From the NCBI RefSeq assembly GCF_003044305.1, contig NZ_PZOX01000005.1, forward strand, positions 195,493-259,492: 64,000 nt of DNA, read 5' to 3'. Position 1 is the stretch's first letter. Every line of letters starts with the position of its first letter. The notes beneath the pieces were generated by a model. It was not told where the DNA came from, did not search any database, and saw nothing but the letters and a program-made list of their open reading frames with translations. The translations under genes were made by a program, and so were the position numbers. Source of the stretch: Vitiosangium sp. GDMCC 1.1324. Its GTDB lineage: Bacteria; Myxococcota; Myxococcia; Myxococcales; Myxococcaceae. Of this stretch, positions 11,984 to 64,000 are shown piece after piece.

Positions 11984-12586
11984 ATGAATCCCAATACATC
12001 CCCCTCCCACGCCTACCCGCACTCAAGGTCCGTCACCCTTTCCAACGCAGTGTTCGGGGACCTCTACCTCCGGCTCCTGCGCCCGGACGGCAACGGCCTG
12101 GAGCGCTTGCGGAAGATGCGCGACGCCACCCGCGACCCCCACGTCTCCGGCGGCGCCACCGCTTTGGAGCAGTTCCTCACCCAGCTCCTCGACCGGCCGG
12201 TGCGGCTGAGCGAGCCCCAGATTCGCGCGTTCGAGCGCCTCGCCGAGTCGCCCGCCCTCGCCGCGCTCTCACCCTGGAGCGGGCAGCAGCAGCTCGGGGA
12301 AGTCCAGGAGATGGTATCGGCCTCGGACCTTCACGACCTCTACCTGGCGCTCCTCAAGCCGGACGGTGGCCTCGTGAAGCGCGTCAAGGCGGTCCAGGCC
12401 GCCGCTGCCCTGTACGAGCCTGGAACCGCGGGCAGCCGGGACGCTCTGGACCAGGAACTCTCCCGGCTCGTCGGCCGGCCTGTGCAGCTCAGCGAGCCCC
12501 AGCTGCGCTGCTTCAAGGAGCTGCTCGTCGACGAGCCGGCCTTCGCCCACATCGCCCCCTGGGAGGACCTCACCGCGAGCTGGTGA
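11984..12586 (+). CDS. Small cytoplasmic protein built from two tandem ~70-aa repeats; function unknown.
   Basis: The start is MNPNTSPSHAY. Repeat 1 is DLYLRLLRPDGNGLERLRKMRD...RPVRLSEPQIRAFERL. Repeat 2 is DLYLALLKPDGGLVKRVKAVQ...RPVQLSEPQLRCFKEL. It is divergently transcribed from the caspase/trypsin pair. Confidence 0.45.
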   Translation: MNPNTSPSHAYPHSRSVTLSNAVFGDLYLRLLRPDGNGLERLRKMRDATRDPHVSGGATALEQFLTQLLDRPVRLSEPQIRAFERLAESPALAALSPWSGQQQLGEVQEMVSASDLHDLYLALLKPDGGLVKRVKAVQAAAALYEPGTAGSRDALDQELSRLVGRPVQLSEPQLRCFKELLVDEPAFAHIAPWEDLTASW

Positions 12587-36521: not shown

Positions 36522-37924
36522 GTGTGCCCCGCTATCGCAGCTATCCGGATTTGTCGGAGGTGCCCGGTAGAGTGGGAGCACCTAACGGAGGCGCCGATGA
36601 CTCCCACGCTGCTGGTGTTGCTGCTGCTCACCCAAGCGGAAGCGCCTGACAACCCTCCGGCAGGGGCCCTGGAGCCTCCGGAGTCGGCTTCGCTGGCTGA
36701 AACGTGGCGCTACCTCGCGCGCGTGGATGCCTCGGGACTGGCGCTGCTGTCGCGGGCTGGAGTGGGCACCGAGGAGGGCTTCGTCCAGGTGGAGCCCACG
36801 CTGATTCTCGACGGGGGCGAGGAACTGGGCGTCAACCTGGGTGCTCCCGTGCGACTGCGCCTGGGGCGCGGCGGTGAGGGCGCGGGCCTCGTTCGCCGCG
36901 AGGACTGGGACAGCCTCTCGGATTGGGGGCAGCTCGTGCGCGGCCTCAAGCTGGGCTCGGACAGCGCGCCCGTGGCGCTATGGGTGGGCGGACTCGAGTC
37001 CTACAGCCTCCTCTCGGGGCACCTCATCCGCCGCTACTCCAACCGCACCAACCCGGACTACCACCCGGCGGGCGCATTCCTCACCGGCACGCTGGGCCCG
37101 GTGTACTCCGAGGCCTTCGCCTCCGACGTGCTGGGCGCGCGCCTCATGGGCGCGGAGGTGGCGCTCGACGTGCAGCACCTCCTCTTCGGCCAGCCCAAGG
37201 AGCGCGGACGCTACACGCTCGCGGTGTCGGCCGTGCATGACTGGGGCAGGGCCGAGGGGCGGACTTCCCCGGTGACGCTGGCACACGTGAACGGGACGGC
37301 AGTGGTGGTGGTGCGCCCGGGCTTCGAGGCGCACGTGCTCGCCGGCTGGGGGGACGGCCGGGCGTGGGTGGCGCGTGGGGCACAGTGGTGGGAGCGGGCG
37401 CGGATGCAGTGACGCCCACGCTGGACATGACGCTGCGGCTGGAAGTGCGCAGGCAGCACGGCGGCTTCCGCCAGGGCTATGTCGGCCCGGACTACGAGCT
37501 GGCGCGCTTCCGGGCCGCGGGCCCCGAGGGCGTGCCGCTGGCCGAGGCGCGCTTCCCGGACGGCTTCTCCGCCTACGGCGAGGCGGTAGTGGGCTGGGAT
37601 GCCGTGCGCTACGGCGGGCTGTGGAAGCAGTTGCAGCTTTCGCTCGCCGCCGAGACCTTCACCTGGGGCCGCTTCGACGTGGACGGGCGCGTGGCGGTGC
37701 AGCTCTTCGACCGCAACCTCGAGGTGGCGGTAAAAGGGCTGGCGGTGGGCCTGGGGCAACCCGGGGCACGCTACCTGGGCGACGCCGAGGTGCGCTGGCG
37801 CCTCTTCGGCGGGCGCCTATATGCGCTGGGCACGGGCGGCACGCTGCTGTTTCCGGAAGGGATGGGCACGCTGCGGCCGGGGGCCTTCGCCTCCGTGGGC
37901 CTGGGGGTGGACAATGCGCGCTGA
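36522..37924 (+). pseudogene. Secreted hypothetical protein split into two overlapping frames (36522..37412 and 37364..37924). The probable frameshift lies near a G6 homopolymer, so this is either a genuine pseudogene or a homopolymer sequencing error.
   Basis: The signal peptide is MTPTLLVLLLLTQAEAPD. Both frames show coding-like GC3 bias and overlap at 37364-37412. The G6 run CTGGGGGGAC lies at ~37346-37355. Confidence 0.4.
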
Positions 37925-39455
37925 CTCGCACCGCGCCTCGTGGGCAGGCCTGCTGCTCGCCCTGGCGCTGCTGTCCACCGGCTGTGCCTCGCTGACGCAA
38001 CCTTCCGTCGAGAGGACGAGCTTGCGCTACGCACCGCGCGAGGCCGCAGGGCCCACCTCAGTCCAGGAGCAAGACGGCGATTCGCCACGCACCTCCGGCT
38101 CCATACTGCCCTCCCCTTCCGTGTCCACTGCACCCGAGCGGCTGCACCGGCGCCGGGCCCCTCGCGTGGAAGTGACGGCGGTGGGCCCGGACAGCGCGGA
38201 GAGGAAGGCGAGGCAGGAGGCCCTCGCGGCCCAACTGGCGTTTCGAGGGGCCCTGCGCGAGGTGTCCGGCTCCACCCACCGCGCCTCCGCCGAGCTCGCC
38301 CGGCTCAAGGCCAGTGGGAGAGGACTCTCGGGCATGCATGCCGAGCTCTTCGTGCGCTTCATCGACTTCGGCACCGAGCAGGGGCGGTGGATGGACGCCC
38401 AGCTCGCCGCCGCCACCCGCCTGGCCGACGCCGCCTCGGAGGTGGACGACCCGGACATGCAGATCGCCCTGCTGAGCATGGCGGGCCCCCGGCTGGAGGC
38501 CGCCATGCTCGGCTCGCTCCTGCTCGCCGCCTGGCTCGACTGCCTGCACCTCGTGGATGCCCTGCTCGACCAGTCCCTCCACAGCGTGGAGAGGATGCGC
38601 CGCGACCTGATGGACTGGCAGGGAATGCTCGAGCCCTCCCTGCGGGCGCTCTCCTCTCTGGAGCCGGACCAGGTGGAGGCCGCGGCGCAAGACGCCCCCG
38701 CCCTGGTGGGCCACCTCTCGGACGCGCTCGCCGCCACAGTTACCAATGTGCGCAAGGGGGTGGAGCTCACCGGGAAGGTGCTGGTGCTCAGAGACATCCT
38801 CCTGTCGCTTCCCCTGGCGCTGGAAGCGCCCCTGCTGGCGTCCGAGGCACCGTCAGCCCCGGCGCTGCTCGGCGCGGGCCTGACGGTGGGTGGCGGCGGA
38901 GTGACGATGGGCACGCGCCTTGTCGTCTCCGCCGAATGGGTGGAGATGATGCGGCAGTTGGTACGCGCGGGTGTCCTCTCGCTGCCCGCCGTCGGTGCCG
39001 CCGTTCGGATTCACGCGGGCGGGGTGATGCTGGCGCAGGCGCATGACGAGTTGCCGCAAGGCGTACGCGAGGCGCTCGGGGACGGGCCCGAGGTGCGGGC
39101 CATGCGCGTGACGGGCAAGACGGGGGCAGGCATGGCCGAGCCGCCGCGGCACCACGTCATGCCCGAGGAGTTCCGCGAGTGGTTCGAGAAGCGCGGCTTG
39201 ACAGGCGAGATGGATATCAACGGGTTCTGCGTCGAGCTGGAGCTGGCACACCACCAAGCCATTCACGGTGGTGGAAACTGGAAGCTGGGGCGCAAATGGA
39301 GCGGTGAATGGAACCGGATGATTATGAAGGTGCTACTCGACGCCGAGAGCAAGGCCGGTCGGATGTTGACGCGCAACACGATCCTGGAGATCGTCGCGAG
39401 TTATATGACGTTGTACGACATCCCGATGAACTTCGTCCGCTGTCGTGGGAGATGA
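37914..39455 (+). CDS. Lipoprotein with a conserved C-terminal toxin-like module; a SitA-like polymorphic lipoprotein toxin candidate.
   Basis: The lipobox is MRADSHRASWAGLLLALALLSTGCASL. The C-terminal ~110 aa read HHVMPEEFREWFEKRG...ELAHHQAIHGGGNWKLGRKWSGEWNRM, a His-rich nuclease-like module. A small cytoplasmic ORF follows with a 3-nt gap. Confidence 0.45.
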   Translation: MRADSHRASWAGLLLALALLSTGCASLTQPSVERTSLRYAPREAAGPTSVQEQDGDSPRTSGSILPSPSVSTAPERLHRRRAPRVEVTAVGPDSAERKARQEALAAQLAFRGALREVSGSTHRASAELARLKASGRGLSGMHAELFVRFIDFGTEQGRWMDAQLAAATRLADAASEVDDPDMQIALLSMAGPRLEAAMLGSLLLAAWLDCLHLVDALLDQSLHSVERMRRDLMDWQGMLEPSLRALSSLEPDQVEAAAQDAPALVGHLSDALAATVTNVRKGVELTGKVLVLRDILLSLPLALEAPLLASEAPSAPALLGAGLTVGGGGVTMGTRLVVSAEWVEMMRQLVRAGVLSLPAVGAAVRIHAGGVMLAQAHDELPQGVREALGDGPEVRAMRVTGKTGAGMAEPPRHHVMPEEFREWFEKRGLTGEMDINGFCVELELAHHQAIHGGGNWKLGRKWSGEWNRMIMKVLLDAESKAGRMLTRNTILEIVASYMTLYDIPMNFVRCRGR

Positions 39456-40009: not shown

Positions 40010-40951
40010 CTACTGAGGAAACGTCACGTTGCCGAGGGTGACGGAGCGCTGGCGCTCCGCGTCCCACAAGACGAGGGTGTAGGAGCCCCGCGCCTCCTTC
40101 TCCGTAGCTATTAGCTCCACCACGACGCGTCCCAGCTCGCCCTTCACTCCTGGCGCGGCCGGGAGGATGGGCTCGATCGGCCAGAGCGGGAGCGGCTTCA
40201 ATATTTCGCCTTTAGGCCCGCGAAGCACCGCGCCCGCCGCCGTCCAGGGCACCGTGCCCGGATTCAGGAGGGACACCTCCACCGCCACCCGCTCCTTGGC
40301 GCGGTAGCTGGTGACGGAGCGCTTGACGAGAGCATTACCTTCCTTCGCCGTGACGTCCCACGTCAGTTCCTTGAGGGAAATACCCCGCCTGCCGTCCACG
40401 AGACCGGAGGCGATGGCACCGCGCAAGCCGTCCGGCACGGCGCGCTCGGCGCGGAGTTGCTTCACCTCCGCCCGGCATTGCTGGACATTGGCCTCGGCAT
40501 CCTCCGCCACCTGCTGGAAGTAGGCTGCCGGGCGCACCTGACGCAGCACCTTCACCTCCTGCATGCCGAGCCCGGGGTGCACGATGAGCTCGAAGCTGGT
40601 GCATGCCGGTGCGGCTTCGTCGGCGAAGCACACCTCCACGTTGGTCCGTTTCCCAGCGACGAGATTGTCGCGAGGAACCAGCGTGAAGGTCTGCTGCCCC
40701 GATGACCAATCCTCGAACCACCCCCGGTCCTCAAGCTTTAGGGACTGCTGCTTGAGCTGCGAGTCGAAACGGAAGGTGATGGGCAGGCCCGGGCCGATAC
40801 ACACCACGGGCGGATTCCTGCCATGGGTGGCGGAAAGCTCGATGCGCGGGCTCGCCGCCTCGCACTCGTCGGTGGACGTAGCTGCGGACACGTCAGCGGG
40901 GGTGGACGCGAGAGCCAGCGCCAAGAGGCCGGCAGGGAAAGCGGGGAGCAC
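40010..40951 (-). CDS. Secreted DUF2381 / TIGR02268-like protein (Myxococcus paralogous family found next to Ser/Thr kinase genes).
   Basis: The signal peptide is MLPAFPAGLLALALASTPADVSA. It lies immediately downstream of, and on the same strand as, the 741-aa kinase. The family assignment is from memory of the conserved arrangement and is not alignment-verified. Confidence 0.5.
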   Translation of the reverse strand: MLPAFPAGLLALALASTPADVSAATSTDECEAASPRIELSATHGRNPPVVCIGPGLPITFRFDSQLKQQSLKLEDRGWFEDWSSGQQTFTLVPRDNLVAGKRTNVEVCFADEAAPACTSFELIVHPGLGMQEVKVLRQVRPAAYFQQVAEDAEANVQQCRAEVKQLRAERAVPDGLRGAIASGLVDGRRGISLKELTWDVTAKEGNALVKRSVTSYRAKERVAVEVSLLNPGTVPWTAAGAVLRGPKGEILKPLPLWPIEPILPAAPGVKGELGRVVVELIATEKEARGSYTLVLWDAERQRSVTLGNVTFPQ

Positions 40952-43288: not shown

Positions 43289-43447
43289 GGGAGCGGCGAC
43301 TCCTCCTGACTCGAAACGCTAGCACGGCGGTAGCGTCGCGCCGCCGTGGGCTTGGGGCCGAAGCCGGGGGCGGCGCACACCGAAACCCCTCCGGAAAGGG
43401 TGCAGCTCGGCCCCCGGCTCCGGCTCCAACTTGTTGAGGCCCCTGCC

Positions 43448-43897
43448 CTACTCCTCGGCAGGGCTCTCCAGCACCTTGGCTACGCGAATCAGCCGCTTCA
43501 CCTCCCCGGGGCTCCACCCGCGAAGCATGCGCACGAACTGCCGCAGCTCGGGTGAGAGGCTCCCCTCGGGGGTGGGCTGCGCCAGCGTAGCGGCCACGTC
43601 CGTGCGGCTGAGCTCGAGCAGCACGTCGGCGGAGATTCCGAGCGTGAGGGCCAGCTTCCGCAGCGTGGGTACGGACGGCATCATGCCTCCGCGCTCAATG
43701 CGTCCGTAGACTTCGGGGGCGAGGCACGTCTGCTTCGCCACCTGGGCCTGGGTCAGCCCCAGCCGCTCGCGGACCGTGCGGCAGACTTCACCGAGAGACT
43801 TCTGAAGGTGTTCGAGTTCCATGGGTTGTCTCCACAGGGTTCCGGCCCGCCCGAGCGTTCCGGGGGTATTCGTCCTTTGCTGCTCGGCGCGGCTCAC
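43448..43897 (-). CDS. XRE-family helix-turn-helix regulator.
   Basis: LGEVCRTVRERLGLTQAQVAKQTCLAPEVYGRIERGGMMPSVPTLRKLALTLGISADVLL is a classic Cro/C1-type HTH. Confidence 0.55.
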   Translation of the reverse strand: MSRAEQQRTNTPGTLGRAGTLWRQPMELEHLQKSLGEVCRTVRERLGLTQAQVAKQTCLAPEVYGRIERGGMMPSVPTLRKLALTLGISADVLLELSRTDVAATLAQPTPEGSLSPELRQFVRMLRGWSPGEVKRLIRVAKVLESPAEE

Positions 43898-44298
43898 CTG
43901 GCGCGCGGCGCCCGCTTCCGGGCCTTCGCCGCGCGGGACTTCGCCACCATGGAGCGCGCCAGGGTGGCGAGCGCGGCGTGCTGCACCGGCGTCAACGTGC
44001 GAATTGTCCGGAGGAAGCGCCGCACCTCTGGGGTGTCATCCACTGCTTCGCTCGTCGGTACGAGCCAGGGTGGCGGCTGCTTCAACTGGAAGCCCAGCAG
44101 GGTGTTCGCATCCAGCTCCAGCGCGTCGCACAGCCGCAGCAGCGTGGGCACGCTGGGCAGCATTCGCGCCCGCTCGATGCGGCCGTAGACGGCAGCCGCG
44201 AGGTGAGTGCGTTCGGCCATCTGCGCCTGGGTGAGGCCCAGGCGCTGGCGGGTGTCCTTGGCTACCTTGGCGAGGTGGTGTTGCAGGGCCGTGGGCAT
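43894..44298 (-). CDS. XRE-family HTH regulator, paralogue 2.
   Basis: VAKDTRQRLGLTQAQMAERTHLAAAVYGRIERARMLPSVPTLLRLCDALELDANTLLG. It has a 4-nt overlap with the downstream paralogue. Confidence 0.55.
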   Translation of the reverse strand: MPTALQHHLAKVAKDTRQRLGLTQAQMAERTHLAAAVYGRIERARMLPSVPTLLRLCDALELDANTLLGFQLKQPPPWLVPTSEAVDDTPEVRRFLRTIRTLTPVQHAALATLARSMVAKSRAAKARKRAPRAR

Positions 44299-44310
44299 GA
44301 GCGCGCTCCC

Positions 44311-44724
44311 TCAACGTGCGGCCTGTTTGGGTGGGCGTGGGCCGGGCGCACTCCCCATGAAGCGGGCCACATTGGTGAGCGCGTCCACCTGCTTCGCCCC
44401 CAGCCGGCGCACGGAGCGCAGCAAGCGGCGAAGCGCGGGCCGCTCCTCGGAAGGAGGCGCGGCCTGGGCGAGCCACGGCGGCGGGGTGTCGGTGACGAGT
44501 CCCAACAACGAGTTGGCGTCCACGCCGAGAGCGCGGCACAACCGCAGGAGGGAAGGCACGCTCGGGAGCATGTGGCCACGCTCCAGGCGGGCGTACACCT
44601 CCGTGGCCAGCTCGGCGCGCTCGGCGACTTCCGCCTGCGTCAGCCCAGCACGAGCGCGTGCCTCACGGGCCGCGGCCCCCACGTGGCGTGCGAGCGAAAA
44701 GTCCCTCTTGTTGACGGAGCCCAC
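44311..44724 (-). CDS. XRE-family HTH regulator, paralogue 3, with a GTG start.
   Basis: REARARAGLTQAEVAERAELATEVYARLERGHMLPSVPSLLRLCRALGVDANSLLG. The 642-aa ORF 44311..46239 is an artefactual frame extension. Confidence 0.5.
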   Translation of the reverse strand: MGSVNKRDFSLARHVGAAAREARARAGLTQAEVAERAELATEVYARLERGHMLPSVPSLLRLCRALGVDANSLLGLVTDTPPPWLAQAAPPSEERPALRRLLRSVRRLGAKQVDALTNVARFMGSAPGPRPPKQAAR

Positions 44725-44732
44725 GGTGCACC

Positions 44733-45911
44733 TCAGTGAGCGTCTCCGGGCTCGCGGCCCGTCAGGTCCGGGGGCAGCGGAAACACGCCTTCTTCCACGT
44801 CCGGGTGGGCTTGCAGCTTCCGCAAGTCCGAGGCCTCCTTGAGGATGTCGCTCAGTTCCGCCTCGGCCTCCCTTGCACCATAGGGCCGCCCCGGACGAGC
44901 GTGCAGGAAGTCCCGCAGGTCGTAACGCATGTCGTCCGCCGACGGGTAGCGGTCCGAGGGGTTCTGCTGCAACGCCCGGGCGACAATCTTCTGCAGAGGA
45001 GCGGGCAGGTCCTTCGCCGCGTGCTCCACCTCTTCCGGGCCAAAGTGCAGCACGCGGTTGGCCAGCGCCTCCAAGGGCAGCAGTGTGGAGCGCTCGGCGC
45101 GCACCTCGGGAGGCAATCGCTCGTCGAGGTCCTCCCACAGTTTGTCGGGCGGGTCCAACGGGTAGCGCGCGAGCAGCATCTCGAGCAACACCAGGCCCAG
45201 CGAGAAGATGTCGGCCCTGCCGTCCAGCTTGCGGGGCGTGAGGGGGTCTCGCTGGCGGGCCTCCGGCTTGAGGAAGCCGCGGAGGACTTCCGGAGCGATG
45301 TAGGCCGGGTCTCCCCGCAGCAGCCCACGGCGCGTGGGAATGCGGCCGAGCAGCTCCGAGTAGGCCGCGCCGAAGTTGGTGAGCTTGACGCGGCCATTCT
45401 CCCCCAGGCGGATGCGCATGGGGCCCACGGCGCGGTGGACGAGCTTGAGGGGGTTGCCGTCCTCGTCCTCGCAGCGGTGCGCGTAGTCGAGCGCGTCGGC
45501 CACCTCGCCGGCCACGTACGCGGCGAAGTCGGGGCTCAGCCTGCGCCCCACCAACCAGGCAGCGTCCATGAGGGTGAGGAGGAAACAGCCGCGCAGGTGC
45601 TCCATGACGATGTAGGGCACCTCGTCGTGCACCACGTAGCCGTACACGGTGGCGATGTTGGGGTGGCGCAGGGTCTTGGAGAGCGTCACCTCCTCCAGCG
45701 CCCGGTGCCGGGCCTCGCGCCCGTGCTCCATGACAATGGGCTTGAGGACGATGAGCTTCACTGGGCCGCCTCCAAGCGGCTCTCGCGTGGCGAGCAGGAG
45801 GGTGTCGTAGTCGGGGTGCGCGACGAGGCGGCGCACCACCTCGTAGCGAAAGTCGCCCACGGTGAAGGACGTGAGGGGCATGGGCCCGCCGGGTTTCTTC
45901 GGTTCGGACAT
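44733..45911 (-). CDS. Protein-kinase-like protein, a predicted pseudokinase.
   Basis: The kinase fold is recognisable (VKLIVLKP, TLRHPNIATVYGYV, APEVLRG). The catalytic loop is HRAVGP (HRD to HRA) and DFG is replaced by TNFG, so both catalytic Asp residues are lost. Confidence 0.55.
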   Translation of the reverse strand: MSEPKKPGGPMPLTSFTVGDFRYEVVRRLVAHPDYDTLLLATREPLGGGPVKLIVLKPIVMEHGREARHRALEEVTLSKTLRHPNIATVYGYVVHDEVPYIVMEHLRGCFLLTLMDAAWLVGRRLSPDFAAYVAGEVADALDYAHRCEDEDGNPLKLVHRAVGPMRIRLGENGRVKLTNFGAAYSELLGRIPTRRGLLRGDPAYIAPEVLRGFLKPEARQRDPLTPRKLDGRADIFSLGLVLLEMLLARYPLDPPDKLWEDLDERLPPEVRAERSTLLPLEALANRVLHFGPEEVEHAAKDLPAPLQKIVARALQQNPSDRYPSADDMRYDLRDFLHARPGRPYGAREAEAELSDILKEASDLRKLQAHPDVEEGVFPLPPDLTGREPGDAH

Positions 45912-45961
45912 GGAAGGCTCGTGGGAGTGAGGGAAGTGAAAAGGAGGTTGCGGCGGCGGAG

Positions 45962-47302
45962 TCAGTGGACGTTTCCCAACCCCGTCTCCGGCAACGGCGA
46001 GGGCTTGCCTGCCTCAACGCCAACAGGGCCCGGCAGCCGTCCAAGGTCGGCCGCATCCATGAGGATTTCAGCGGCTTCCTCGGCGGCCTCCTTCTCGCCG
46101 TAGGGCGTCTGAAGCGAGTGCAGGTAGTCGTACAAGTCAGTGTGCATGTCGCTCGAGGTGAGGTAGCGCTCGTCCGGGTTGTCTCGGAGGGCCCGCGCGA
46201 TGATTCGCCGGAGAGCCTCGGGCAGCTCGTCCGCCGCACGCCGCACCTCCGCAGGCCCGAAGTGCAGTACGCGATTGGCGAGCGTCTCCAGCCTCACGAG
46301 CGCCGCCTCGTCGCTGAGGACGCTGGAAGGGAAGCGCGCCTTGAGGTCGAGCCACAGCGGCTCGCGCTGGTTGCGCGGGTAACGCGCCAGCAACATCTCC
46401 AGCATCACCAAGCCTAGGGAGAAGACATCGGCCCTCTGGTCGAGCCCCGGGGGAGAGAGTGGATCTTCGTGGCCCTTCTCTGGCTGGAGAAAGCCGCGAA
46501 GGATTTCAGGAGCGGTGTAGGCCGCATCGCCTCGGACGGGTGCCCCTGGGGAGGGAGGATGCTCGAGCAACTCCGTGTACATGACGCCCAGGTGAGTGAG
46601 CTGAACGCGGCCGGTGACGCCCACGCGAATGCGCCGGGGACCAATGGCGCGGTGGACGAGGTGGAGGGGTTTCTCATCGTCCTTCTTGCCGTGGAGGTAG
46701 AGGAGTGCGTCCGCCAGCTCCGTGGCCGCGTACGCCACGAAGGAGGGGGACAGTCTGCGCCCCACCGCCACGGCCGCATCCAGCAGGGTGAGGAGGCAGC
46801 AGCCGCGCAGGTGCTCCAGGAGGATGTAGGGCCGCGTGTCGTCGAAGACGCAGCCCCAGACGCCAGCGAGGTTGGGATGGCGTGTAAGGCCCGCGCGCCG
46901 CACCTCCTCGATGCATCGGTCCACCGTCGCGGAGGGATACTCGTGCGGGAGGAAGGGCCTGAGCTCCACCAACCTGGGCTGGCCCTCCATCTCCGGGTAG
47001 CCGTTGAGGACGAGCTGGCGGGAGGCGAGCAGCCCCGACTCATAGTCGGGGTGGGTGCCCACGTCGCCGTGGACTTCGTAGCGGTAGCGGCCCCATTGGA
47101 AGCCGAAGCGTGGCGCGGGGCGCGGAGAGGAGACAGTCACGGTGGGAGTCCCGGGAGTGGAGGGAGTGCCTAATGAGTGACTACGAGGGCCGGGACGGCC
47201 ACGGGCCGCCATGTGTCCGTCTCGTCCTTCATGTAGAAGGTGCCCACCTCGAAAGTGCCCGCTCGGTAAGCCCCGTCCTGCACTCCCACGGGGCCCACGC
47301 AC
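45962..47302 (-). CDS. Second pseudokinase paralogue.
   Basis: LVHRAIGPRRIRVGVTGRVQLTHLGV. HRD has become HRA and DFG has become HLG. Confidence 0.5.
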   Translation of the reverse strand: MRGPRGSAGRGLPSGHFRGGHLLHEGRDGHMAARGRPGPRSHSLGTPSTPGTPTVTVSSPRPAPRFGFQWGRYRYEVHGDVGTHPDYESGLLASRQLVLNGYPEMEGQPRLVELRPFLPHEYPSATVDRCIEEVRRAGLTRHPNLAGVWGCVFDDTRPYILLEHLRGCCLLTLLDAAVAVGRRLSPSFVAYAATELADALLYLHGKKDDEKPLHLVHRAIGPRRIRVGVTGRVQLTHLGVMYTELLEHPPSPGAPVRGDAAYTAPEILRGFLQPEKGHEDPLSPPGLDQRADVFSLGLVMLEMLLARYPRNQREPLWLDLKARFPSSVLSDEAALVRLETLANRVLHFGPAEVRRAADELPEALRRIIARALRDNPDERYLTSSDMHTDLYDYLHSLQTPYGEKEAAEEAAEILMDAADLGRLPGPVGVEAGKPSPLPETGLGNVH

Positions 47303-47779
47303 TGCTGCTCCTTGCCGGTGAGCGCCCAGGCCAAGTAGCCATCAGGCCGCAGCACCACGAGGGGTTGGAACTCCTGGACGCGCCGGCCCAGCTCGGCCCG
47401 GGGAACGGCCTCAGTCTTGAGCGTCACGTCGAGCAGCAACACGTCCGCCACAAGCCACGGGGCATATTCTGAGGCCTTGGGCGGAAAGAGGTGGAAGTGT
47501 AGCCGGAGCTGCTTGGCCTCCTGGGGAGACAAGTCCCGGCCCCTGGGCAGTAGCTCCGTGGGGAGCCCGGCCTTGAGCAGCAGGACGGCGAACTCGTCCA
47601 GGTCCGCGAGCGCATCCCGGGTGGTGGCATACGCCGCGGGCGGCGCGTTGCTGGCGCAGGCCAGTGGGCACAGGAGCACGAAGGAGAGCGCGGCCAACAG
47701 GCCCGGCAGGAGACGGGCGGGACGCGCGCAGACACGAGCCCCCTCCCGACGCGAAAGAATTTCGCTCGGCACGATGGCA
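47170..47779 (-). CDS. Hypothetical secreted/lipoprotein; start uncertain.
   Basis: A hydrophobic N-terminus with LLCPLACASN resembles a lipobox. The ORF has coding-like GC3 bias. Confidence 0.3.
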
Positions 47780-48102
47780 CCTCCGAAAACACATGATGTG
47801 AATTGAACTGACGACCAAACAGGTAGCACAGCCAAAATAGGAAGGGAAGCCCCGCCCAACCGCTTACGTCAGACACGCAGTCCAACCAATCAGAGCGGCA
47901 GAAGCCTGCTTTTGAGAGAGCAGCGAGCTCCTCGGCGATTTGGAATCGATAAGTAAGTCGGCATGCCCCAACCCAGGAAGTCACGCCGGAAATCTGGCGT
48001 GAGACAGGCGGCGGAACGAAGTCAGAGACAAGAACGCCAGCCGCCCGGAACACAGGCGCGGAGCACCTACGGCTCCGTGCACAGGACGCTGATTGGGCCG
48101 CC

Positions 48103-48516
48103 TTGTTCCCGCGATGGGGACGCAGCACGGCGATGCGGGGCTGCCCGACTCAAGGCCTCTCACTCGCCCCCGGCACGATGCGCCTCGGACAGCCTCGAGT
48201 TGGCCAGCACCACGGGCAGCACGCGCACCAGGCCCTCCTCAACGGCCAGCCTATCGACTACGTGGAGAAGGCCGAGGCGGAGGCGAAGCGTGTGCGCGAG
48301 AAGCTCATGGGCGTGACGCGGCGGCACGCCCTCTGGGTGCAGTCGTCGCTCGTTTTCATGAAGCCAAAGCTCAGGGTGAAGTTTCAGCCGCGCAATGTGG
48401 CGGCGCTCACCGACGAGATGCTGCTGCCATTCCTTCGGCAGAAGCCTCAGAAGCTCGGGCCTTACGAGTTGGAGGAGCTTGTCCAAGCCGCACAGCGGGA
48501 GGAGACGTGGGAGTAG
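48103..48516 (+). CDS. Hypothetical protein, possibly a truncated remnant.
   Basis: A 137-aa ORF lies between the kinase cluster and cas6. I see no recognisable motifs. Confidence 0.2.
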   Translation: MFPRWGRSTAMRGCPTQGLSLAPGTMRLGQPRVGQHHGQHAHQALLNGQPIDYVEKAEAEAKRVREKLMGVTRRHALWVQSSLVFMKPKLRVKFQPRNVAALTDEMLLPFLRQKPQKLGPYELEELVQAAQREETWE

Positions 48517-48680: not shown

Positions 48681-49388
48681 CTACCGGACCGACGCCAGCG
48701 GATTGAACGGGGGCCTCGGGCTGCACCGAGGCGGCGCAGGCGATAGACCCCCTCCTTTTTCGGACGGCATTTCATACTCAAGGCCCTGTCCGTCCCGAAC
48801 CTCCTCGTGTCGGGTGGGAAGGAAGAGCCCACAGCCCAGGTGACGGCGCCCACCCAGTCCCTGCGTTTGGAGGCGCAGGGAGTCCTCTGGCGCGAGGCCT
48901 CCCACCGTGAGGGCAAAGCCCACGACCTTTCTCCCCGCGATGGACAGGATGCGCCGTCGGCCCAGGGTCAGCGTCCCCTCGCAGCGCAGTTCCCTCAGGA
49001 ACTTGCGCGTGGAGAGCTCGAAGGTGGCGGCGTCCAACGCGTGCTTGAAGGTGACGAGCCGAGCGGACAGCGAGGGGGCTGCCGCCAGGGGGTGGATCTC
49101 AGGCCTTCCCAGGCGGACTTCCCGGCCCGCGAGGACGAGTGCACTGCACGCGAGCGGTAGGAAGAATGCGAGGGAATCCGCTGGACAGCGCAGACGCAGC
49201 GCGCCTCTTCCCAGGTGGAGGACCTGGGCATCGGCTCTCGTGCCACGCAGGGTGAAGACACCGACGTCATGGCGCTCGTGCAGCCCAGGAAGCCGACGGG
49301 AGAGTGCCGAGAACAGCAAGTAACCGTGATCGAGCGGCACCGGGCCGCCGCGCACGGGAAACAGAATATCGATGACAGGCGAAGTCAT
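48681..49388 (-). CDS. cas6: Cas6 crRNA-processing endoribonuclease (type III-associated).
   Basis: MTSPVIDILFPVRGGPVPLDHGYLLFSAL... has a C-terminal Gly-rich loop GLGGRRHLGCGLF (GhGxxxxxGhG). It overlaps the cmr6 stop by ATGA. It is the last gene of the cmr operon. Confidence 0.6.
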   Translation of the reverse strand: MTSPVIDILFPVRGGPVPLDHGYLLFSALSRRLPGLHERHDVGVFTLRGTRADAQVLHLGRGALRLRCPADSLAFFLPLACSALVLAGREVRLGRPEIHPLAAAPSLSARLVTFKHALDAATFELSTRKFLRELRCEGTLTLGRRRILSIAGRKVVGFALTVGGLAPEDSLRLQTQGLGGRRHLGCGLFLPTRHEEVRDGQGLEYEMPSEKGGGLSPAPPRCSPRPPFNPLASVR

Positions 49389-50512
49389 GCACGAAGCCTC
49401 GTGAGGAGCTCTTCGAGCCGTTGCTGCTCCTCGGGACGCTTGAGGTTCAGGTACTTCTTGAGGAGGCGCGCCGCCTCGAGCCGCTCCGGCTCCGTCAACG
49501 CCAGCAGTCGATTCACCCATTGCTGCTCCACCTGCTGGAACTGCTGTCGCTGGCCCACGGTGCGCGCTTTCTGCTCCTCCAACCAGGTCTTCAGTTCCAT
49601 CACGGCCGGAGTCTCCAGACTCTTGCCGGGTTGGAGGCCCGGTGTCTCCGGAACGAGCCGCCCGTACCCGGTCGCGGTCTTTCCTCCCAGGCCCCAGGAC
49701 TCCAACGCCTCGCCCACGTAACGGCCCGCCCGCTCCAGCAGCACTCGCTCGCCCCTCGCCTCCAGTACCACCAGGAAGCGATTGCCCGGCGCCACCGTCA
49801 AGAATGACACGGGGTTGGGATCGTCGAAGTCCACGGGCCATTCCCCGCCCCCGCTCTCGTAATACCCACGCTGATGCACGGTGAGCACGTCTCGCGCCAA
49901 CATCGGCCCACTCCCCTTCTCCGGCGGGATCCACAGCGCATCGTGGAAGGTCACCTCCCCCTGGCTGCCTTTCTCCGATACCTCGTCCACCTCCGGAGCA
50001 CCGAACAGCCGTCGGAACACCCGGCCTGGAACCCGGCTCGGACGAGAGAGCTCCCAGGTCGTCCCACGGAAGGGCTCACGCTCGGGCTCCTCAATATCGG
50101 GATCCGGGCCATACACCGTCTGAACGTAATGGGCCGTGAGTCCCTTGAGGGCCGAGCCGGGCAGCACGGGCACTCCCCAGGTATGGTGCAGCGTCAGCCC
50201 GACTCCGGTGGCCGACGAGGTGCCGTGCCCCACGAGGATCCGGCTCTCCGCCCGTACGATGAAGCAGAGGGTGTCTGGACCCTGGAAGGATTCCTTCCAA
50301 CGGCGATAGGCCTGTGCATAGCGAGGCGGCTCGCGGCACCGGGACAGAAGCTCCAGCCATCGAGTCCGAAGTTCCAGCCACCGCTTGCGCTCGACGGGGT
50401 CTTCTCGCAACAGGGCCAGGGGCGCACACCGGGTGTACCCCAGGCCCACGTGGCTCGGCACCTGCCCGGGGGTCTCCGGGCACCGGTCCTCACCGTCCGC
50501 CTTCAGCCACAT
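49385..50512 (-). CDS. cmr6: Cmr6 (Cas7-group RAMP).
   Basis: ILVGHGTSSATGVGLTLHHTWGVPVLPGSALKGLTAHYV is the RAMP G-rich loop GSALKG. Start choice among in-frame Met codons is uncertain. Confidence 0.6.
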   Translation of the reverse strand: MWLKADGEDRCPETPGQVPSHVGLGYTRCAPLALLREDPVERKRWLELRTRWLELLSRCREPPRYAQAYRRWKESFQGPDTLCFIVRAESRILVGHGTSSATGVGLTLHHTWGVPVLPGSALKGLTAHYVQTVYGPDPDIEEPEREPFRGTTWELSRPSRVPGRVFRRLFGAPEVDEVSEKGSQGEVTFHDALWIPPEKGSGPMLARDVLTVHQRGYYESGGGEWPVDFDDPNPVSFLTVAPGNRFLVVLEARGERVLLERAGRYVGEALESWGLGGKTATGYGRLVPETPGLQPGKSLETPAVMELKTWLEEQKARTVGQRQQFQQVEQQWVNRLLALTEPERLEAARLLKKYLNLKRPEEQQRLEELLTRLRA

Positions 50513-50903
50513 GGCTTCGCTCCTCCTGCGTGAAGGTGGCCTGCACCGCGCGCCGGAACCACACCAACAGCTGAAGCAACTCACGGGTCGCCAGCATGTA
50601 GTCGCTCATCTCGAGCCGCCGCACCGCATCTGGAAGCTTCACGCCCGCCGTCCGGGGAGGCCCGGGGAGCAGTGCGTCGGCGAGATCCTCAAGGAGCCGT
50701 CCCACGGGCTTGTCGTGCTTCGCCTTCTCGGACTCCAGCTCACGCTCGAGGAAGGCCAGCGCCGCTGCCAGGCCATTGCGCAGCACGGCGGCGCCGAGGG
50801 AGTGGACGTGCATCGCATAGTCCGCGCGCTCGCCCGGGGGCACGCGCATGACCCGCTCGTAGGCGTGGAGGGCTCGCGTCTGCTGCCGCGTCCGGTGGGT
50901 CAT
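50490..50903 (-). CDS. cmr5: Cmr5 small subunit.
   Basis: MTHRTRQQTRALHAYERVM...HSLGAAVLRNGLAAALAFLERE is a 137-aa all-alpha protein. It shows an ATGA overlap with the cmr4 stop and a GGAGG-like ribosome-binding site. Confidence 0.6.
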   Translation of the reverse strand: MTHRTRQQTRALHAYERVMRVPPGERADYAMHVHSLGAAVLRNGLAAALAFLERELESEKAKHDKPVGRLLEDLADALLPGPPRTAGVKLPDAVRRLEMSDYMLATRELLQLLVWFRRAVQATFTQEERSHVAEGGR

Positions 50904-51811
50904 GGCCGTGCCTCCCTCTGAGCGCCGGGCCATGCCGCCAGCCGGCACCTGCCCCGGCCCACGGTGGCCTTGCCACCCAGTTGCAACAGCGTTGTCCCCT
51001 TCAGCGCCCGGTCGAGCACCTCCGTCGCGCTGAGATCGGTGCCCCGGCGCAAGCTACGTCCCGCGGCCAGCACCCCTACCAGGAGGGTCTCCGCGGGCAG
51101 GCTCTCTTCCTGCCAGAGCGCTCCCTGCACCACCGTGCCGGTCCCGGGGTCGATTCGCACGCGCGTCTCCACCTGGGTGGCCGTCTCCAGGAGGAAGCTC
51201 ATCGTCTCGTCGTCTACCACGGCGAAGCGCTCGCGCAGCCCTTCCTCTTCCTCGGGCCAGGTCCGAGCGAGGAAGCGTGCCCAGGCTTCCACCGCGGGCT
51301 CCACCTGGGTGTCCAGGTCCAGATCCTCCAGCAAAAGCCTGCGGTGCTTGGGCGACACGGTGATGTTGCCCTCCCCCACCCGTGCGCCAGTCACGGGCAG
51401 CCGCTTCATGCGCCCCGGTAAGCCCTCGAGGCCCGTCAGGTCCCTGCGCGCCAGTTCCAGCAGGAGCGGCGAGGACACCCACGCGAAGGCGCCCAGGAAG
51501 CTGCGCACGGGCAGCGCCACCAGCCGCGCATCTCCCACCACCAGCGCACCGGCATGGTCTCCTTCCCGGGTCTCGTCTCCCGCCGCGCCGCTCGTCTCGC
51601 GCAGAGGGCCGAAGAGGGCCTCCCGCTCCTCCGAAGGCAGGTCCCGGTGTGCATCGCGCAGCACGCCCTTGAGCGAAGAACCGGGGACGAAGGGGATGTT
51701 CGTCGCACGCAACCTCGCGATGGGTAGGTCGATGAGGCCCACGCTCTGCCCCGTCCCCGCGTGCAGGGGAGAGAGGGCGTGCAGCAGGTAGGGCCGGGTC
51801 TCCATGCTCAT
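50900..51811 (-). CDS. cmr4: Cmr4 (Cas7 backbone subunit).
   Basis: MSMETRPYLLHALSPLHAGTGQSVGLIDLPIARLRATNIPFVPGSSLKGVLRDAH shows the Cmr4 thumb and G-rich loop. It overlaps the cmr3 stop by ATGA. Confidence 0.7.
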   Translation of the reverse strand: MSMETRPYLLHALSPLHAGTGQSVGLIDLPIARLRATNIPFVPGSSLKGVLRDAHRDLPSEEREALFGPLRETSGAAGDETREGDHAGALVVGDARLVALPVRSFLGAFAWVSSPLLLELARRDLTGLEGLPGRMKRLPVTGARVGEGNITVSPKHRRLLLEDLDLDTQVEPAVEAWARFLARTWPEEEEGLRERFAVVDDETMSFLLETATQVETRVRIDPGTGTVVQGALWQEESLPAETLLVGVLAAGRSLRRGTDLSATEVLDRALKGTTLLQLGGKATVGRGRCRLAAWPGAQREARP

Positions 51812-52983
51812 GTGTTCATCTCCTCGGGGTTCCAATGCCCGGGCAGTACCCGCCCCAGGCCCTCCTCGCGGCCACTGCCCCAGGGGGCCAGCCAGAGAGT
51901 GCTCAGCGCGGTGAAGGGAAGTCCGTCCACCCGCTCGAAGAAATAGACCGAGCCCGCGGGCACCAGCCGCCGGGTGGCGCGAGCCCTCCGCTGGACCATG
52001 TCCCAGGTGGACAGTTCCAGGGGCCGGTTCACCAGTGCCGCGCGGAGCACCACCTGCCCTTCGACTCCCGGCAAGGTGCCGACCCACGCGGGACATCCCT
52101 CGTACTCGGCACGCTCCAGACCATCCGGCAGCCAGCCGCGTTGGAATTGCGCGGGCGTGGCCAGAATCAATCGCAGCCCGGGCGAGCGCTCCGGCAGTCC
52201 CCTGGGCGCCGCGAAGAGCCCGGGGGACACACGCTCCGCCAGCGTCAACCGCCGCTTGCCACCCAGTCCCAGCGGTCCCCAGGGAAAGCCCGGAGCCTCG
52301 GTGGGCAGCGTGCACTCCAGGCCCAGGGCCCACTCGCGGGCTCCGTTACCGAGGGGTTCGCGGCAGAGCATCTCCAGGATGGGCGTCTGGTACAGCATGC
52401 CGGGCTCCGCGGTCTGGGTGTCGGGGTTCAAGGTCACCCGCACATCGACACGCCAGGGAGGACCGGACTGGCCGCGAGATTTTGGAACCTCGCCGCGCAG
52501 CCAGCCGCTCAGGGCCTCCTCCGTCCAGAACGGCGGCAGGGGCCTCGGCTTGCCCGGCGGGAGCACGGGGCGCCACAGGGCCTCCAGCGCCGCATCGTCC
52601 TCCGTGCCCAGGGTCGCGACGCCGCGCGAAGGCCGCCGGGGGAGAAGTCGCTGGAGACCTCCGTCCACGGCCAGGGCATCCGCCGACACGGGCCACATGC
52701 GGTGCTCGGGGGCGAACTCCTCCCCGAGGGGCCGCAGGAGGGCCAGCACGGCTCCGAGGGCAACTTCCCGGGTCTCCCGCTCCCACTGTTCGGGAGATAG
52801 GGTGCGCGAGGAGCGGGCCATGAGGGACTGGCCCCAGGCCGCCCGCAGCGCGCCACGAATCGTGGAGGGGGGAGGCCAGGGGTGGGAATGGCTCCGCCCG
52901 ACATCGCTGGTGTACCAGCCACGGCCGTCCTTGCAGAACAGCCCATCACGCGGCAACAGGGCCAGGCACGCCGTCGTGCTCAT
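51808..52983 (-). CDS. cmr3: Cmr3 (Cas5-group RAMP).
   Basis: The N-terminal motif is MSTTACLALLPRDGLFCKDGRGW (L.PrD.lf.rDgRpf). It is 391 aa and overlaps the cmr2 stop. Confidence 0.6.
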   Translation of the reverse strand: MSTTACLALLPRDGLFCKDGRGWYTSDVGRSHSHPWPPPSTIRGALRAAWGQSLMARSSRTLSPEQWERETREVALGAVLALLRPLGEEFAPEHRMWPVSADALAVDGGLQRLLPRRPSRGVATLGTEDDAALEALWRPVLPPGKPRPLPPFWTEEALSGWLRGEVPKSRGQSGPPWRVDVRVTLNPDTQTAEPGMLYQTPILEMLCREPLGNGAREWALGLECTLPTEAPGFPWGPLGLGGKRRLTLAERVSPGLFAAPRGLPERSPGLRLILATPAQFQRGWLPDGLERAEYEGCPAWVGTLPGVEGQVVLRAALVNRPLELSTWDMVQRRARATRRLVPAGSVYFFERVDGLPFTALSTLWLAPWGSGREEGLGRVLPGHWNPEEMNT

Positions 52984-57963: not shown

Positions 57964-58002
57964 GGGAAGGCTCCTGAAGAGGATGGGACCGCGAGGACGG
58001 AC

Positions 58003-58889
58003 TCAGGGCCCCCGCTGCCGGTAGAACTCGCCGAAGAGCTCCCGCAGGCGCCCGTGGGCCCGCGGAGGATCCGAGTCGCTCTCGTCCCTCGCGAGCCGCA
58101 CCTGTCTCGCCGCGCTCGCCAGCAACTGATGGGCCGCCGTCTTCTGGTTGGAGGTCATCCGCTCATCCACGGCGGGGCCCAGCCCGGCGGGATCCGGACA
58201 CGTCCCCAGCACCTTCTGGCTCAGGTGGGAGAAAAGCCTCTCCAGCCCGTCGAGGTAGTCCCCGGGGGGCGAGGGAAACGCGCTGTAGCTCATCACCTCC
58301 AGATGGAACGAGCCCAGGGGGCTGGACGGGTGATGTCGGTTCCAATGCTTGACGGCCTTGAGGAGCGGCTTGAGCTTCTTGCCTGCGGCCTCGTTGGCCT
58401 CCGTGCTCAGAGTCTGGTGGATGCGGGGATTGGTGGAGATCCATCGCCCCGTTTCCCGCTCGGGGATGAGGAAGGTGTCCCGCCCCGGCACCGAGAACGC
58501 GGGCACGACGTCGAACTCGTTTCCCGAGTCCGTGAAGCCGATGTGCACCGAGTGCTGCTGGAGGATCGGAAGGCTCTTGTTGGACCACTTGTCGTGAAGC
58601 GCCTGCTGGACCTGCTTGAGCGCATCATCCGCCGTCAGCCCCCCTGCGAGGTGAATCGGGGTGGATGAGAGGACATCTCCCCCAGCACGACGAAGATGTC
58701 GATGTCATGCAGTGGCCGGATAGCGGTGTGGCGGCTGTAGGAACCGGAGAGAAAGTCCGTCTTCGTGTTGAGCCGCTTCCGCAAGGCCTCGCGCACCAGG
58801 GTGTGCTGCCGGCTGACCTCGTCCCGCTGTCCCTGCGTCAATTCCAGGGACTGGATGAACTTCTCCAGGCCCTCACGCACGCTCCACAT
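58003..58889 (-). pseudogene. SMODS-type (CBASS cGAS/DncV-like minimal) nucleotidyltransferase interrupted by a frameshift at a G6 homopolymer. This is either a pseudogene or a sequencing indel.
   Basis: The N-fragment (58635..58889) carries the SMODS signature GSYSRHTAIRPLHDIDIFVVL. The C-fragment (58003..58548) continues with ...ADDALKQVQQALHDKWSN...SGNEFDVVPAF, the second acidic motif. The two fragments are out of frame around CAGGGGGGCTGA. One extra or missing G restores a single ~295-aa ORF. Confidence 0.6.
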
Positions 58890-63964: not shown

Positions 63965-64000
63965 CAGCCTGTAGGGTCCGACATGGGTGGGGAGGGAGGA

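Follow-up and report, generated by a model that had tools for sequence, protein, structure and literature searches.

What purpose do kinase-like proteins without catalytic residues serve when they are encoded in one row with DNA-binding regulators? This question is raised by a 64,000-nucleotide stretch of the genome of the myxobacterium Vitiosangium sp. GDMCC 1.1324 (contig NZ_PZOX01000005.1, positions 195,493 to 259,492; hereafter the window, whose own coordinates are used below). It carries two genes for kinase-fold proteins, here PsK1 and PsK2, followed by three genes for XRE-type (Cro/C1) helix-turn-helix (HTH) regulators, XRE1 to XRE3. To our knowledge, almost no bacterial Hanks-type pseudokinase has been assigned a role. 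We found by genome comparison that these five genes are part of a larger cassette, made up of a lipoprotein gene, one or two pseudokinase genes, one to three XRE genes, the gene of a receptor-type Ser/Thr kinase (STK) and that of a DUF2381 protein. With a probability of roughly 55%, we read this cassette as an envelope-to-DNA signalling relay, in which the pseudokinase would be the non-catalytic partner or substrate that links the receptor kinase to SinR-like XRE repressors.

PsK1 and PsK2 keep the kinase fold without the phosphotransfer residues

Both kinase-fold proteins were recognized by the Pfam profile PF00069 (Pkinase), PsK2 with 69 bits and PsK1 with 41.4 bits, against a cutoff of 31.7. 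Their catalytic loops and DFG positions read HRAVGPMR and NFG in PsK2 and HRAIGPRR and HLG in PsK1, opposite HRDVKPAN and DFG in PknB and HRDLKREN and DFG in the neighbouring STK. In the HMMER alignment to PknB structures, LVHRAVGPMRIRL of PsK2 faces IIHRDVKPANIMI, and KLTNFGAA faces KVMDFGIA; a MAFFT alignment with the neighbouring intact kinase placed the motifs in the same columns. Neither alignment showed an Asp elsewhere in the catalytic loop of PsK1 or PsK2. A preliminary description of the locus had proposed such an alignment and had stated that both proteins lost the HRD Asp and the DFG Asp, which the alignments bear out. The loss is wider than it had stated: both have also lost the HRDxK Lys, the Asn of the catalytic loop and the Gly-rich loop, with RLVAHPDYD and DVGTHPDYE at the position of the Gly-rich loop in the two proteins and no GxGxxG. 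PsK2 keeps the VAIK Lys (K57), the alphaC Glu (E73) and the APE motif, and PsK1 has an Arg for the VAIK Lys and keeps the alphaC Glu.

The AlphaFold2 model of PsK2 showed a normal bilobal kinase fold (predicted TM-score 0.79), and its best matches in the Protein Data Bank (PDB) by Foldseek were PknB and Stk1 (E ~1e-12). As judged from these alignments, PsK1 and PsK2 are kinase folds without the residues needed for phosphotransfer. Residue T193 of PsK2, which lies in the activation loop, within a model loop of low confidence (189-198), is a candidate phospho-acceptor.

The two proteins belong to a cassette found across two myxobacterial families

A pattern scan that covered one genome per species yielded 79 loci, in which open reading frames (ORFs) were called and searched with the eight window proteins; 53 loci had enough flanking DNA to be scored. 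Among these, the small kinase gene had at least one XRE gene as a neighbour in 38, a membrane kinase gene in 38 and a DUF2381 gene in 38, and all three adjoined it in 35, in Archangiaceae and Myxococcaceae alike. The cassettes came from Archangium, Cystobacter, Hyalangium, Myxococcus, Corallococcus and Pyxidicoccus. A lipoprotein gene stood upstream of the pseudokinase gene in 17 of the scorable loci (~22 loci overall), and the loci without partners fell into a separate orphan clade and a rearranged Corallococcus form.

Cassettes carry one to three XRE genes, many of them a single one. Some Archangium cassettes, and those of Myxococcus, Hyalangium and Pyxidicoccus, have one or both XRE genes on the other strand, in divergent orientation to the STK gene. 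Tandem pseudokinase pairs are rare, being present in loci L003 and L009 and in the window, which on this comparison is the fullest version of a common module. The cassette is also multiplied within genomes, with at least six copies in Archangium lansingense. The paralogous expansion of pseudokinases with regulators that had been suggested for this locus is thus real, although what expands is the whole cassette, not the pseudokinase/XRE pair alone. Phage and plasmid collections held no members of the family, only generic kinase matches below 33% identity. One Corallococcus/Myxococcus-type variant (L082) was found in a record titled Comamonas sp. KCTC 72670, an assembly that is probably contaminated or mislabelled.

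Loss of catalytic residues is graded, and the dead state is under purifying selection

With PsK2 as the query, a word-indexed search gave more than 850 homologues, the named ones all from Cystobacter, Archangium or Vitiosangium and often several per genome; the HRA and NFG motifs of the PsK2 type recur in more than 100 of the homologues. Loss at the catalytic positions is graded across the family alignment. The catalytic loop and DFG position are HRDVNPEN and DFG in the orphan clade, HRDVSPRN and DFG in Hyalangium and some Myxococcus cassettes, HRD and HFG in Myxococcus and Pyxidicoccus, HRD and NFT in Corallococcus, HRA and DFG in the single sequence L050, and HRA and NFG in all Archangiaceae cassettes. 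In a neighbour-joining tree the HRA/NFG group was monophyletic, with the HRA plus DFG intermediate L050 at its base and the PsK1 type as a long-branch offshoot within it.

Over the wider family, represented by 52 sequences after clustering at 50%, the HRD and DFG positions take almost any residue. The activation segment follows the motif GR..T/S...(R/K)GD..Y.(A/S)PE, and its T/S is present in ~83 of 86 locus ORFs and in ~48 of the 52 representatives, so that the activation-loop Thr/Ser is better conserved than any catalytic residue. The ratio of nonsynonymous to synonymous substitution rates (dN/dS) of PsK2 against its three closest orthologues was 0.16-0.23, among the lowest in the cassette. 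Its pairwise identity between cassettes tracked that of the active kinase domain of the neighbouring STK, at 85 versus 87% in the closest class and 51 versus 50% further out. Together, the tree and the substitution rates indicate that the dead state of the small kinase is ancient, monophyletic and under purifying selection. They likewise suggest that phosphotransfer by the small kinase is dispensable to the cassette and that its fold and activation loop are not.

The orphan clade (L048, L051, L053-L060, L062 and L067, from Archangium and Cystobacter), which keeps HRDVNPEN and DFG, has no adjoining XRE, membrane kinase or DUF2381 gene and is a possible still-active relative.

The XRE regulators resemble small oligomerising repressors

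The preliminary description had recognized three paralogous Cro/C1-type HTH genes, and this assignment was upheld by the HTH_3 and HTH_31 profiles (E 1e-10 to 2e-14) and by mutual identities of 37-44%. With PF01381 (HTH_3) the three proteins scored 53.9, 39.1 and 44.9 bits against a cutoff of 23, and XRE2 shares 44% identity with XRE1 and 37% with XRE3. In other cassettes, copies of the XRE1 and XRE3 types have fixed places, the XRE1 orthologues as the first XRE, and an orthologue of XRE2 is present in L030. By this distribution the three XREs are old paralogues with separate orthologues elsewhere and do not form a recent local array. All 225 homologues found were myxobacterial, restricted to Myxococcaceae and Archangiaceae.

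The AlphaFold2 model of XRE3, with a mean predicted local distance difference test score of 90.6, showed a five-helix HTH domain, a 22-residue linker and a C-terminal two-helix hairpin. Its top Foldseek matches were C.BclI, SinR/SinI, ClgR, DdrO and the N-terminal domain of CapH. The HTH domain superposed on those of C.AhdI and C.BclI with a root-mean-square deviation (rmsd) of 1.3-1.7 Å, and a two-domain match to SinR had a large rmsd, of 12 Å. The C-terminal domain had no sequence match in the PDB save one immunity repressor. Among the PADLOC profiles, capH was matched over its full length by XRE1 (E 1.3e-9; the best capH match cited had E 9e-11), and the XREs also matched C-protein profiles; a match to the NCBIfam SlrR profile was weak. 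As modelled, the XREs look like small oligomerising SinR/C-protein-like repressors specific to the cassette. A conserved Ser-Pro at the start of the C-terminal helix of XRE3 was considered as a phosphosite and rejected, as it resembles a helix N-cap (S-P-E-L).

The receptor kinase, the DUF2381 protein and the lipoprotein are predicted to face the envelope

The row of genes continues on the same strand into a transmembrane Ser/Thr kinase and a DUF2381 protein, as had been noted before. The STK consists of a kinase domain (residues 1-290), a Pro/Ala-rich linker, one transmembrane helix (475-493) and an extracytoplasmic C-terminal region of ~250 residues. Its GxGxxG, VAIK Lys, HRDxKxxN and DFG motifs are intact in all 38 cassettes examined. 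The DUF2381 protein, which has an N-terminal signal peptide, scored 212.7 bits with TIGR02268 (cutoff 76.15), and its gene comes after STK in 38 of the 53 scorable loci. Both the STK ectodomain and the DUF2381 protein diverge faster (71-73% identity) than the cytoplasmic parts (85-87%), as expected for a sensory or recognition surface.

At the head of the row we found a lipoprotein gene in the same unit, which the preliminary description had missed. Its product has a hydrophobic signal segment and the lipobox LAC/A, and its GTG start at 47772, preceded by a GGAGGTG Shine-Dalgarno sequence, is conserved in orthologues. It matched the PADLOC profile PDC-M17A with E 4.8e-37, but over profile positions 42-178 of 487 only; no other cassette protein matched a PDC-M17 model. 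PDC systems, of which PDC-M17 is a multi-gene one, are phage defence candidates put forward by guilt-by-embedding (10.1101/2024.01.29.577857), and a literature search found no mention of PDC-M17.

A full-length PDC-M17A homologue (E 7e-145) is encoded just downstream of a cassette in L009 (13310-14944, minus strand). Its N-terminal domain is the one that stands alone in the cassette lipoprotein, and Pfam was uninformative about it. In the window, a 544-residue protein with a C-terminal DUF2380 domain, a myxobacterial paralogous lipoprotein family, is encoded at 37821-39455 on the plus strand, convergent with the DUF2381 gene; three other cassettes and L001 likewise have DUF2380 proteins in their flanks. 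We considered this protein as a full-length PDC-M17A relative of the lipoprotein and rejected it, with neither BLASTP similarity nor a PADLOC match.

Gene boundaries and candidate regulatory DNA

At a G+C content of 65-72% around the cassette, the window holds many spurious ORFs. Genes were picked by codon-position G+C together with Pfam and NCBIfam matches, which gave a single row on the minus strand (Table 1).

Table 1. Features of the cassette, in the order of transcription, with the evidence for each.
Feature	Positions	Strand	Basis
Upstream promoter-like blocks of transcription unit 1	47822..47897	-	alignment of seven upstream regions; putative promoter
Lipoprotein gene, 200 aa, lipobox LAC/A, first in unit 1	47170..47772	-	signal segment and lipobox
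PsK1 pseudokinase, 416 aa as deposited	45962..47212	-	Pfam Pkinase E 1.4e-10
PsK2 pseudokinase, 392 aa	44733..45911	-	Pfam Pkinase E 5.4e-19
XRE1, 137 aa, GTG start, C-terminal helical extension	44311..44724	-	HTH_3 E 1.2e-11
XRE2, 134 aa	43894..44298	-	HTH_31 E 3.1e-11, HTH_3 E 7.8e-10
XRE3, 124 aa	43448..43822	-	HTH_3 E 1.9e-14
XRE3-STK intergenic region	43318..43429	-	inverted repeat and CCGTGCTAGC block; putative unit 2 promoter/boundary
Receptor-type Ser/Thr kinase (STK), 741 aa	41063..43288	-	Pkinase E 1.2e-34
DUF2381/TIGR02268 secreted protein, 313 aa, N-terminal signal peptide	40010..40951	-	PF09544 E 1.1e-35

Two details of the preliminary description had to be corrected. It had set the upper limit of the element at 47302, the longest possible ORF, which is over-extended. 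The deposited hypothetical protein DAT35_17030 (P0120) of Vitiosangium sp. GDMCC 1.1324, 100% identical to PsK1, starts at 47212, and the family alignment favours a likely start at GTG 47140, giving 392 residues. The HTH genes had also been said to be coupled by 4-nt overlaps, where we found gaps: 8 nt from the PsK2 stop to the XRE1 GTG, 12 nt from the XRE1 stop to the XRE2 ATG, and ~71 nt between XRE2 and XRE3. The sole possible overlap is GTGA at 43897-43894, at the XRE2/XRE3 junction, and that GTG is used by no homologue. We place the start of XRE3 at ATG 43822 because the seven nearest homologues are every one called at 124 residues, alignments begin at M26, and a GGAGA Shine-Dalgarno sequence precedes this ATG.

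We infer two transcription units from the sequence, one for the lipoprotein, pseudokinases and XRE1-3 and one for STK and DUF2381; such a split is also required by the divergent XRE arrangement in Myxococcaceae. An alignment of seven orthologous or paralogous regions upstream of unit 1 showed the blocks CGCTCTGAyyGGTTG at -125, GCGGTTGGGC at -91, GGGCTTyC at -80 and GGCTGTGyTACC at -61 from the lipoprotein start codon, the last two at fixed distance in 14-15 of 21 cassettes. By eye, the -61 block was tried as a sigma-54 site and discarded for its wrong spacing. Between XRE3 and STK lie a GC-rich inverted repeat (43338-43429, I1/I2) and CCGTGCTAGC (43318-43327), followed by GGAGG before the STK ATG. 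The motif GTGCTAnCCT, related to the unit 1 block, and GGAGG stand before the start codon of the membrane kinase in 11 of the 12 cassettes that were aligned. In the 64 kb, CNGTGCTASC occurs twice only, before the lipoprotein gene and before STK. This count alone is not significant, and the motif has weight because of its placement before both units.

Outside the window, in L068 (a Hyalangium metagenome-assembled genome), the region between the divergent XRE and kinase genes (~11723-12084) holds a perfect 22-bp palindrome, CATGTCTGAnCnGTCAGACATG, twice. In other Myxococcaceae cassettes, AT-rich palindromes (ATAC-N5-GTAT, CTATA-N9-TATAG) adjoin the XRE start. These intergenic palindromes of Myxococcaceae are candidate operators.

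Relatives in Myxococcus xanthus and comparison with known systems

Clusters of kinase, HTH-Xre, kinase and DUF2381 genes have been described in M. xanthus as markers of phase variation (MXAN_4371-4374, 4479-4481, 1892-1895 and 7370/71; PMC3986340; 10.64898/2026.08.28.747804). In tan variants, expression of MXAN_4371 (kinase) was up 132-fold, that of 4372 (Xre) 96-fold and that of the adjacent kinase 4373 9-fold (Dziewanowska et al. 2014, PMC3986340). MXAN_4479-4481, where two Xre genes are listed, and 1892-1895 behave in the same way, and the kinase/Xre pairs, almost silent in yellow cells, rise 100-300-fold in tan variants and in an asgB mutant (PMC3986340). Pseudokinases make up 11 of the 99 kinases of M. 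xanthus (PMC6791715).

A search with a Myxococcus small kinase from the family tree recovered two M. xanthus proteins, with HRDVSPRN and HFG, and in CP017172.1 and CP017170.1 their context is the small kinase, an XRE gene on the opposite strand, a kinase of 613-630 residues and DUF2381. The first of these cassettes lies at 58% of the chromosome, the place expected of MXAN_4371 by gene number. By sequence comparison, the cassette type of the window and that of M. xanthus are homologous. Both have the order of small cytoplasmic kinase-like protein, XRE regulator(s), membrane kinase of ~600-740 residues and DUF2381, their small kinases fall in one family tree, and the ~100-fold induction of 4371/4372 versus ~9-fold of 4373 fits a two-unit structure. 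Unlike the window proteins, which are without the HRD, Lys, Asn and DFG residues, the M. xanthus small kinases are missing the DFG Asp alone (HFG), with HRD and the catalytic Asn still in place. The recovered M. xanthus cassettes also differ in having one XRE gene, on the opposite strand, and neither a lipoprotein gene nor a second pseudokinase gene.

A possible earlier listing in the kinome of Perez et al. (2008) aside, we did not find described the progressive, in Archangiaceae complete, loss of catalytic residues in the small-kinase family of the cassette, the purifying selection on the dead state, or an activation-loop Thr that outlasts the active site. The cluster type itself had already been noticed in M. 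xanthus, and the locus is not categorically new.

Three kinds of known system offer partial parallels. A Ser/Thr kinase cascade from Pkn8 through Pkn14 to MrpC, which Nariya and Inouye are said to have described in M. xanthus in 2005 and 2006, likewise leads in a myxobacterium from a membrane Hanks-type kinase to a soluble Hanks-type protein and on to a transcription factor. It differs in that Pkn14 is active and MrpC belongs to the CRP family, whereas in the window the middle protein is dead, the factors are of the XRE type and the genes are clustered with DUF2381. Pseudokinases are also partners of active kinases in STRAD-LKB1, HER3-EGFR and the JAK JH2 domain. In passages of PMC8141879 that cite Gee et al. 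(2012), the pseudokinase domain of mycobacterial MviN is phosphorylated by PknB and recruits a partner. With such partners PsK1 and PsK2 share a kept fold, lost catalytic residues, conservation, genetic pairing with an active kinase and a retained phospho-acceptor, in their case a candidate one; unlike them, they are stand-alone soluble proteins of ~390 residues, known from sequence, in an operon with DNA-binding proteins and with no FHA partner. The XREs, finally, resemble SinR/SlrR/SinI, CapH and the C-proteins in being small repressors, built of a five-helix HTH that a flexible linker joins to a short helical module for oligomerisation at the C-terminus, and in being encoded beside the genes they likely control. 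In contrast to SinR and CapH, they come with no SinI-like antagonist or CapP protease in the cassette, have no detectable PDB similarity outside the HTH, and form a family found only in Myxococcaceae and Archangiaceae.

A proposed signalling relay and its alternatives

In the relay that we favour, the receptor kinase would sense an envelope cue together with DUF2381 and perhaps the lipoprotein. It would then act on the pseudokinase, most likely by phosphorylating the activation-loop Thr/Ser (T193 in PsK2). As an adaptor or allosteric partner, the pseudokinase would alter the activity or oligomeric state of the XRE repressors, which would act on the promoters of the cassette itself and probably on other genes. 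The working analogy is the Pkn8-Pkn14-MrpC cascade, with its middle kinase reduced to a non-catalytic relay. Of the scaffold or decoy module proposed in the preliminary description, a non-catalytic scaffold or partner fits the purifying selection, an evolutionary rate that matches the one of the active kinase domain, and the Thr kept in the activation loop. The decoy part finds no support: there is no consistent guard or NLR (nucleotide-binding leucine-rich repeat) partner or defence neighbourhood, and there are no phage or plasmid copies.

Several points weigh against the relay. The link from STK through the pseudokinase to the XREs is drawn from gene neighbourhood and conservation only. The components co-diverge with r of 0.74-0.89, which is no proof of contact because linked genes co-diverge anyway. 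A scan with the sigma-70 consensus found no promoters, and terminators no more than expected by chance; nor did the window hold a convincing palindrome as an XRE operator, only GC-rich hairpins after XRE3. PsK1 may be redundant in part, as copies of its type evolve faster (dN/dS ~0.4) and the loop Ser is missing from some of them. PsK2 still has K57, E73 and N179, and nucleotide binding or a non-canonical activity is possible. Lastly, we infer that the recovered M. xanthus cassette is MXAN_4371-4374 from gene order and relative chromosome position only.

The XREs could instead lie at the centre. In a tentative alternative that we rather doubt, the cassette is a bistable epigenetic switch, whose XRE paralogues would heteromerise through their C-terminal hairpins in a double-negative loop like that of SinR/SlrR/SinI. 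The pseudokinases would be anti-repressors or cargo of the ON state, and the receptor kinase would merely bias switching between phase-variant subpopulations. The modelled architecture of XRE3, with SinR/SinI, DdrO and C-proteins among its top structural matches, and the weak SlrR match agree with such a switch, as do the one to three XRE paralogues per cassette in variable orientation, the duplicated palindrome in the XRE/STK intergenic region of L068 and the 100-300-fold induction of the M. xanthus pairs in tan variants and the asgB mutant. These expression data come from another genus, however; the two-domain match to SinR is poor (12 Å), the sole PDB match of the C-terminal domain is an immunity repressor, and the many cassettes with a single XRE gene cannot form a heteromeric loop. 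The rank of the pseudokinase among the most conserved proteins of the cassette would also be left unexplained. We consider it unlikely that the cassette is an anti-phage or conflict system (defence, abortive infection or kin discrimination), with the kinase or pseudokinase sensing attack and CapH- or C-protein-like XREs keeping the system silent. The window is a defence island, with type III-B Cmr genes, a SMODS plus SAVED pair and a kinase-nSTAND1-TPR protein; the lipoprotein matches the candidate PDC-M17A, the XREs match capH and C-protein profiles, and the multicopy cassettes occur in variable genome regions, with many genes for integrases, IS66, phage capsids and Imm11/SUKH immunity proteins in the flanks. 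Yet 138 flanking proteins from 39 loci included no recurrent defence family, only single matches to DRT, GajB-like and CARF profiles. The PDC-M17A match covers the N-terminal third of the profile of a system that is itself a guilt-by-embedding candidate (10.1101/2024.01.29.577857), and known phages and plasmids carry no family members. Matches to kinase-based defence profiles of PADLOC (PD-T4-6, MAD6, PglW, MkoA) span the kinase domain only and are stronger for the ordinary neighbouring STK, and those to PD-T4-6, MAD6 and PglW reflect the generic kinase domain; the NCBIfam scores are far below the cutoffs (MAD6 83.6 versus 460 bits, PglW 39.2 versus 990). Nor does the cassette include a CapP-like protease or a domain recognisable as an effector or toxin. 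A CapH/CapP operon is not found here: none of the eight cassette proteins has a peptidase domain, and the SMODS/SAVED pair is 12 kb off, beyond the Cmr operon.

The remaining alternatives concern the kinase-like proteins themselves. PsK1 and PsK2 might be non-canonical enzymes, catalysing AMPylation or glutamylation as SelO and SidJ do, or acting as kinases with relocated residues like WNK and CASK. PsK2-type proteins conserve K57, E73, H159-R160 and the Asn at the DFG Asp position, the strong purifying selection would suit an enzyme, and SidJ and others are bacterial pseudokinases with new chemistry, according to passages of PMC8141879. We regard this as very unlikely: the DFG position and the catalytic loop have no acidic residue left that could bind Mg2+, neither protein has a Gly-rich loop, PsK1 is also without the VAIK Lys, and the freedom of the HRD and DFG positions across the wider family speaks against a conserved active site. 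That the kinase-like genes are decaying duplicates, or that the XRE/kinase pairs are HipBA-like toxin-antitoxin modules, is effectively refuted by the Pfam and NCBIfam profiles, the motif columns and dN/dS. A tandem kinase-like duplication with lost catalytic residues could suggest decay, but we conclude that the genes are not decaying because their frames are intact, their dN/dS is low (0.16-0.23) and their motifs are conserved, being identical in more than 100 homologues; the G+C content at third codon positions is 0.87. The XREs did match the HipB/Y4mF antitoxin profile weakly (E 1.9e-8 to 7e-4, below cutoff; TIGR03070, 19-34 bits against 71.65), but the kinase-like proteins are Hanks-type (PF00069), with no HipA domain and no catalytic residues.

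A bolder form of the relay, which we hold to be improbable, would make it an epigenetic toggle gated by the receptor kinase: the dead kinase, phosphorylated on its loop Thr, would be the anti-repressor of the SinR-like XREs and bring about a heritable OFF/ON flip. It is equally improbable, in our estimate, that the many cassettes of a genome, each equipped with a fast-evolving ectodomain and a DUF2381 sensor of its own, jointly generate phase-variant cell types. If true, such a toggle would provide a molecular switch for the long-unexplained yellow/tan phase variation and a bacterial case of transcription factors under the direct control of a pseudokinase. Even apart from the toggle, the module could bear on how myxobacteria generate heritable cell types, given the M. 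xanthus clusters of the same order, whose phase variability is among the strongest of any genes there (PMC3986340). Our finding is a solid and testable lead on bacterial pseudokinase function and no surprise; a clade of dead, strongly conserved kinases wired to the same four or five partners offers a clean genetic system for studying it.

Genomic neighbourhood

Directly upstream of the cassette, the minus strand carries at 48681-54803 the full gene set of a type III-B effector (cas6, cmr6, cmr5, cmr4, cmr3 and cas10/cmr2); Tandem Repeats Finder detected no CRISPR array in the 64 kb. Adjoining cas10, also on the minus strand (56152-58704), a gene for a SMODS nucleotidyltransferase (58003-58704) lies directly upstream of one for a 616-residue SAVED protein (56152-58002). 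This CBASS-like pair could be a cyclic-oligonucleotide-based antiphage signalling system (CBASS) or an ancillary effector pair of the type III system. Further on, a minus-strand gene that runs off the end of the window (60623-64000) encodes an intact N-terminal kinase domain, an nSTAND1 NTPase and TPR repeats, an NLR-like architecture. In the lower-G+C gap between cas6 and the cassette promoter, a 137-residue ORF on the plus strand (48103-48516) without a Pfam match may be a gene remnant. On the other side of the cassette, the G+C content falls to 0.59-0.64 at 20-30 kb, possibly in foreign DNA, and in-frame coding tandem repeats of 159, 165 and 126 nt are present at 20271-22299, 26925-27807 and 33122-34570, the last of them WD40-like with a period of 42 residues.

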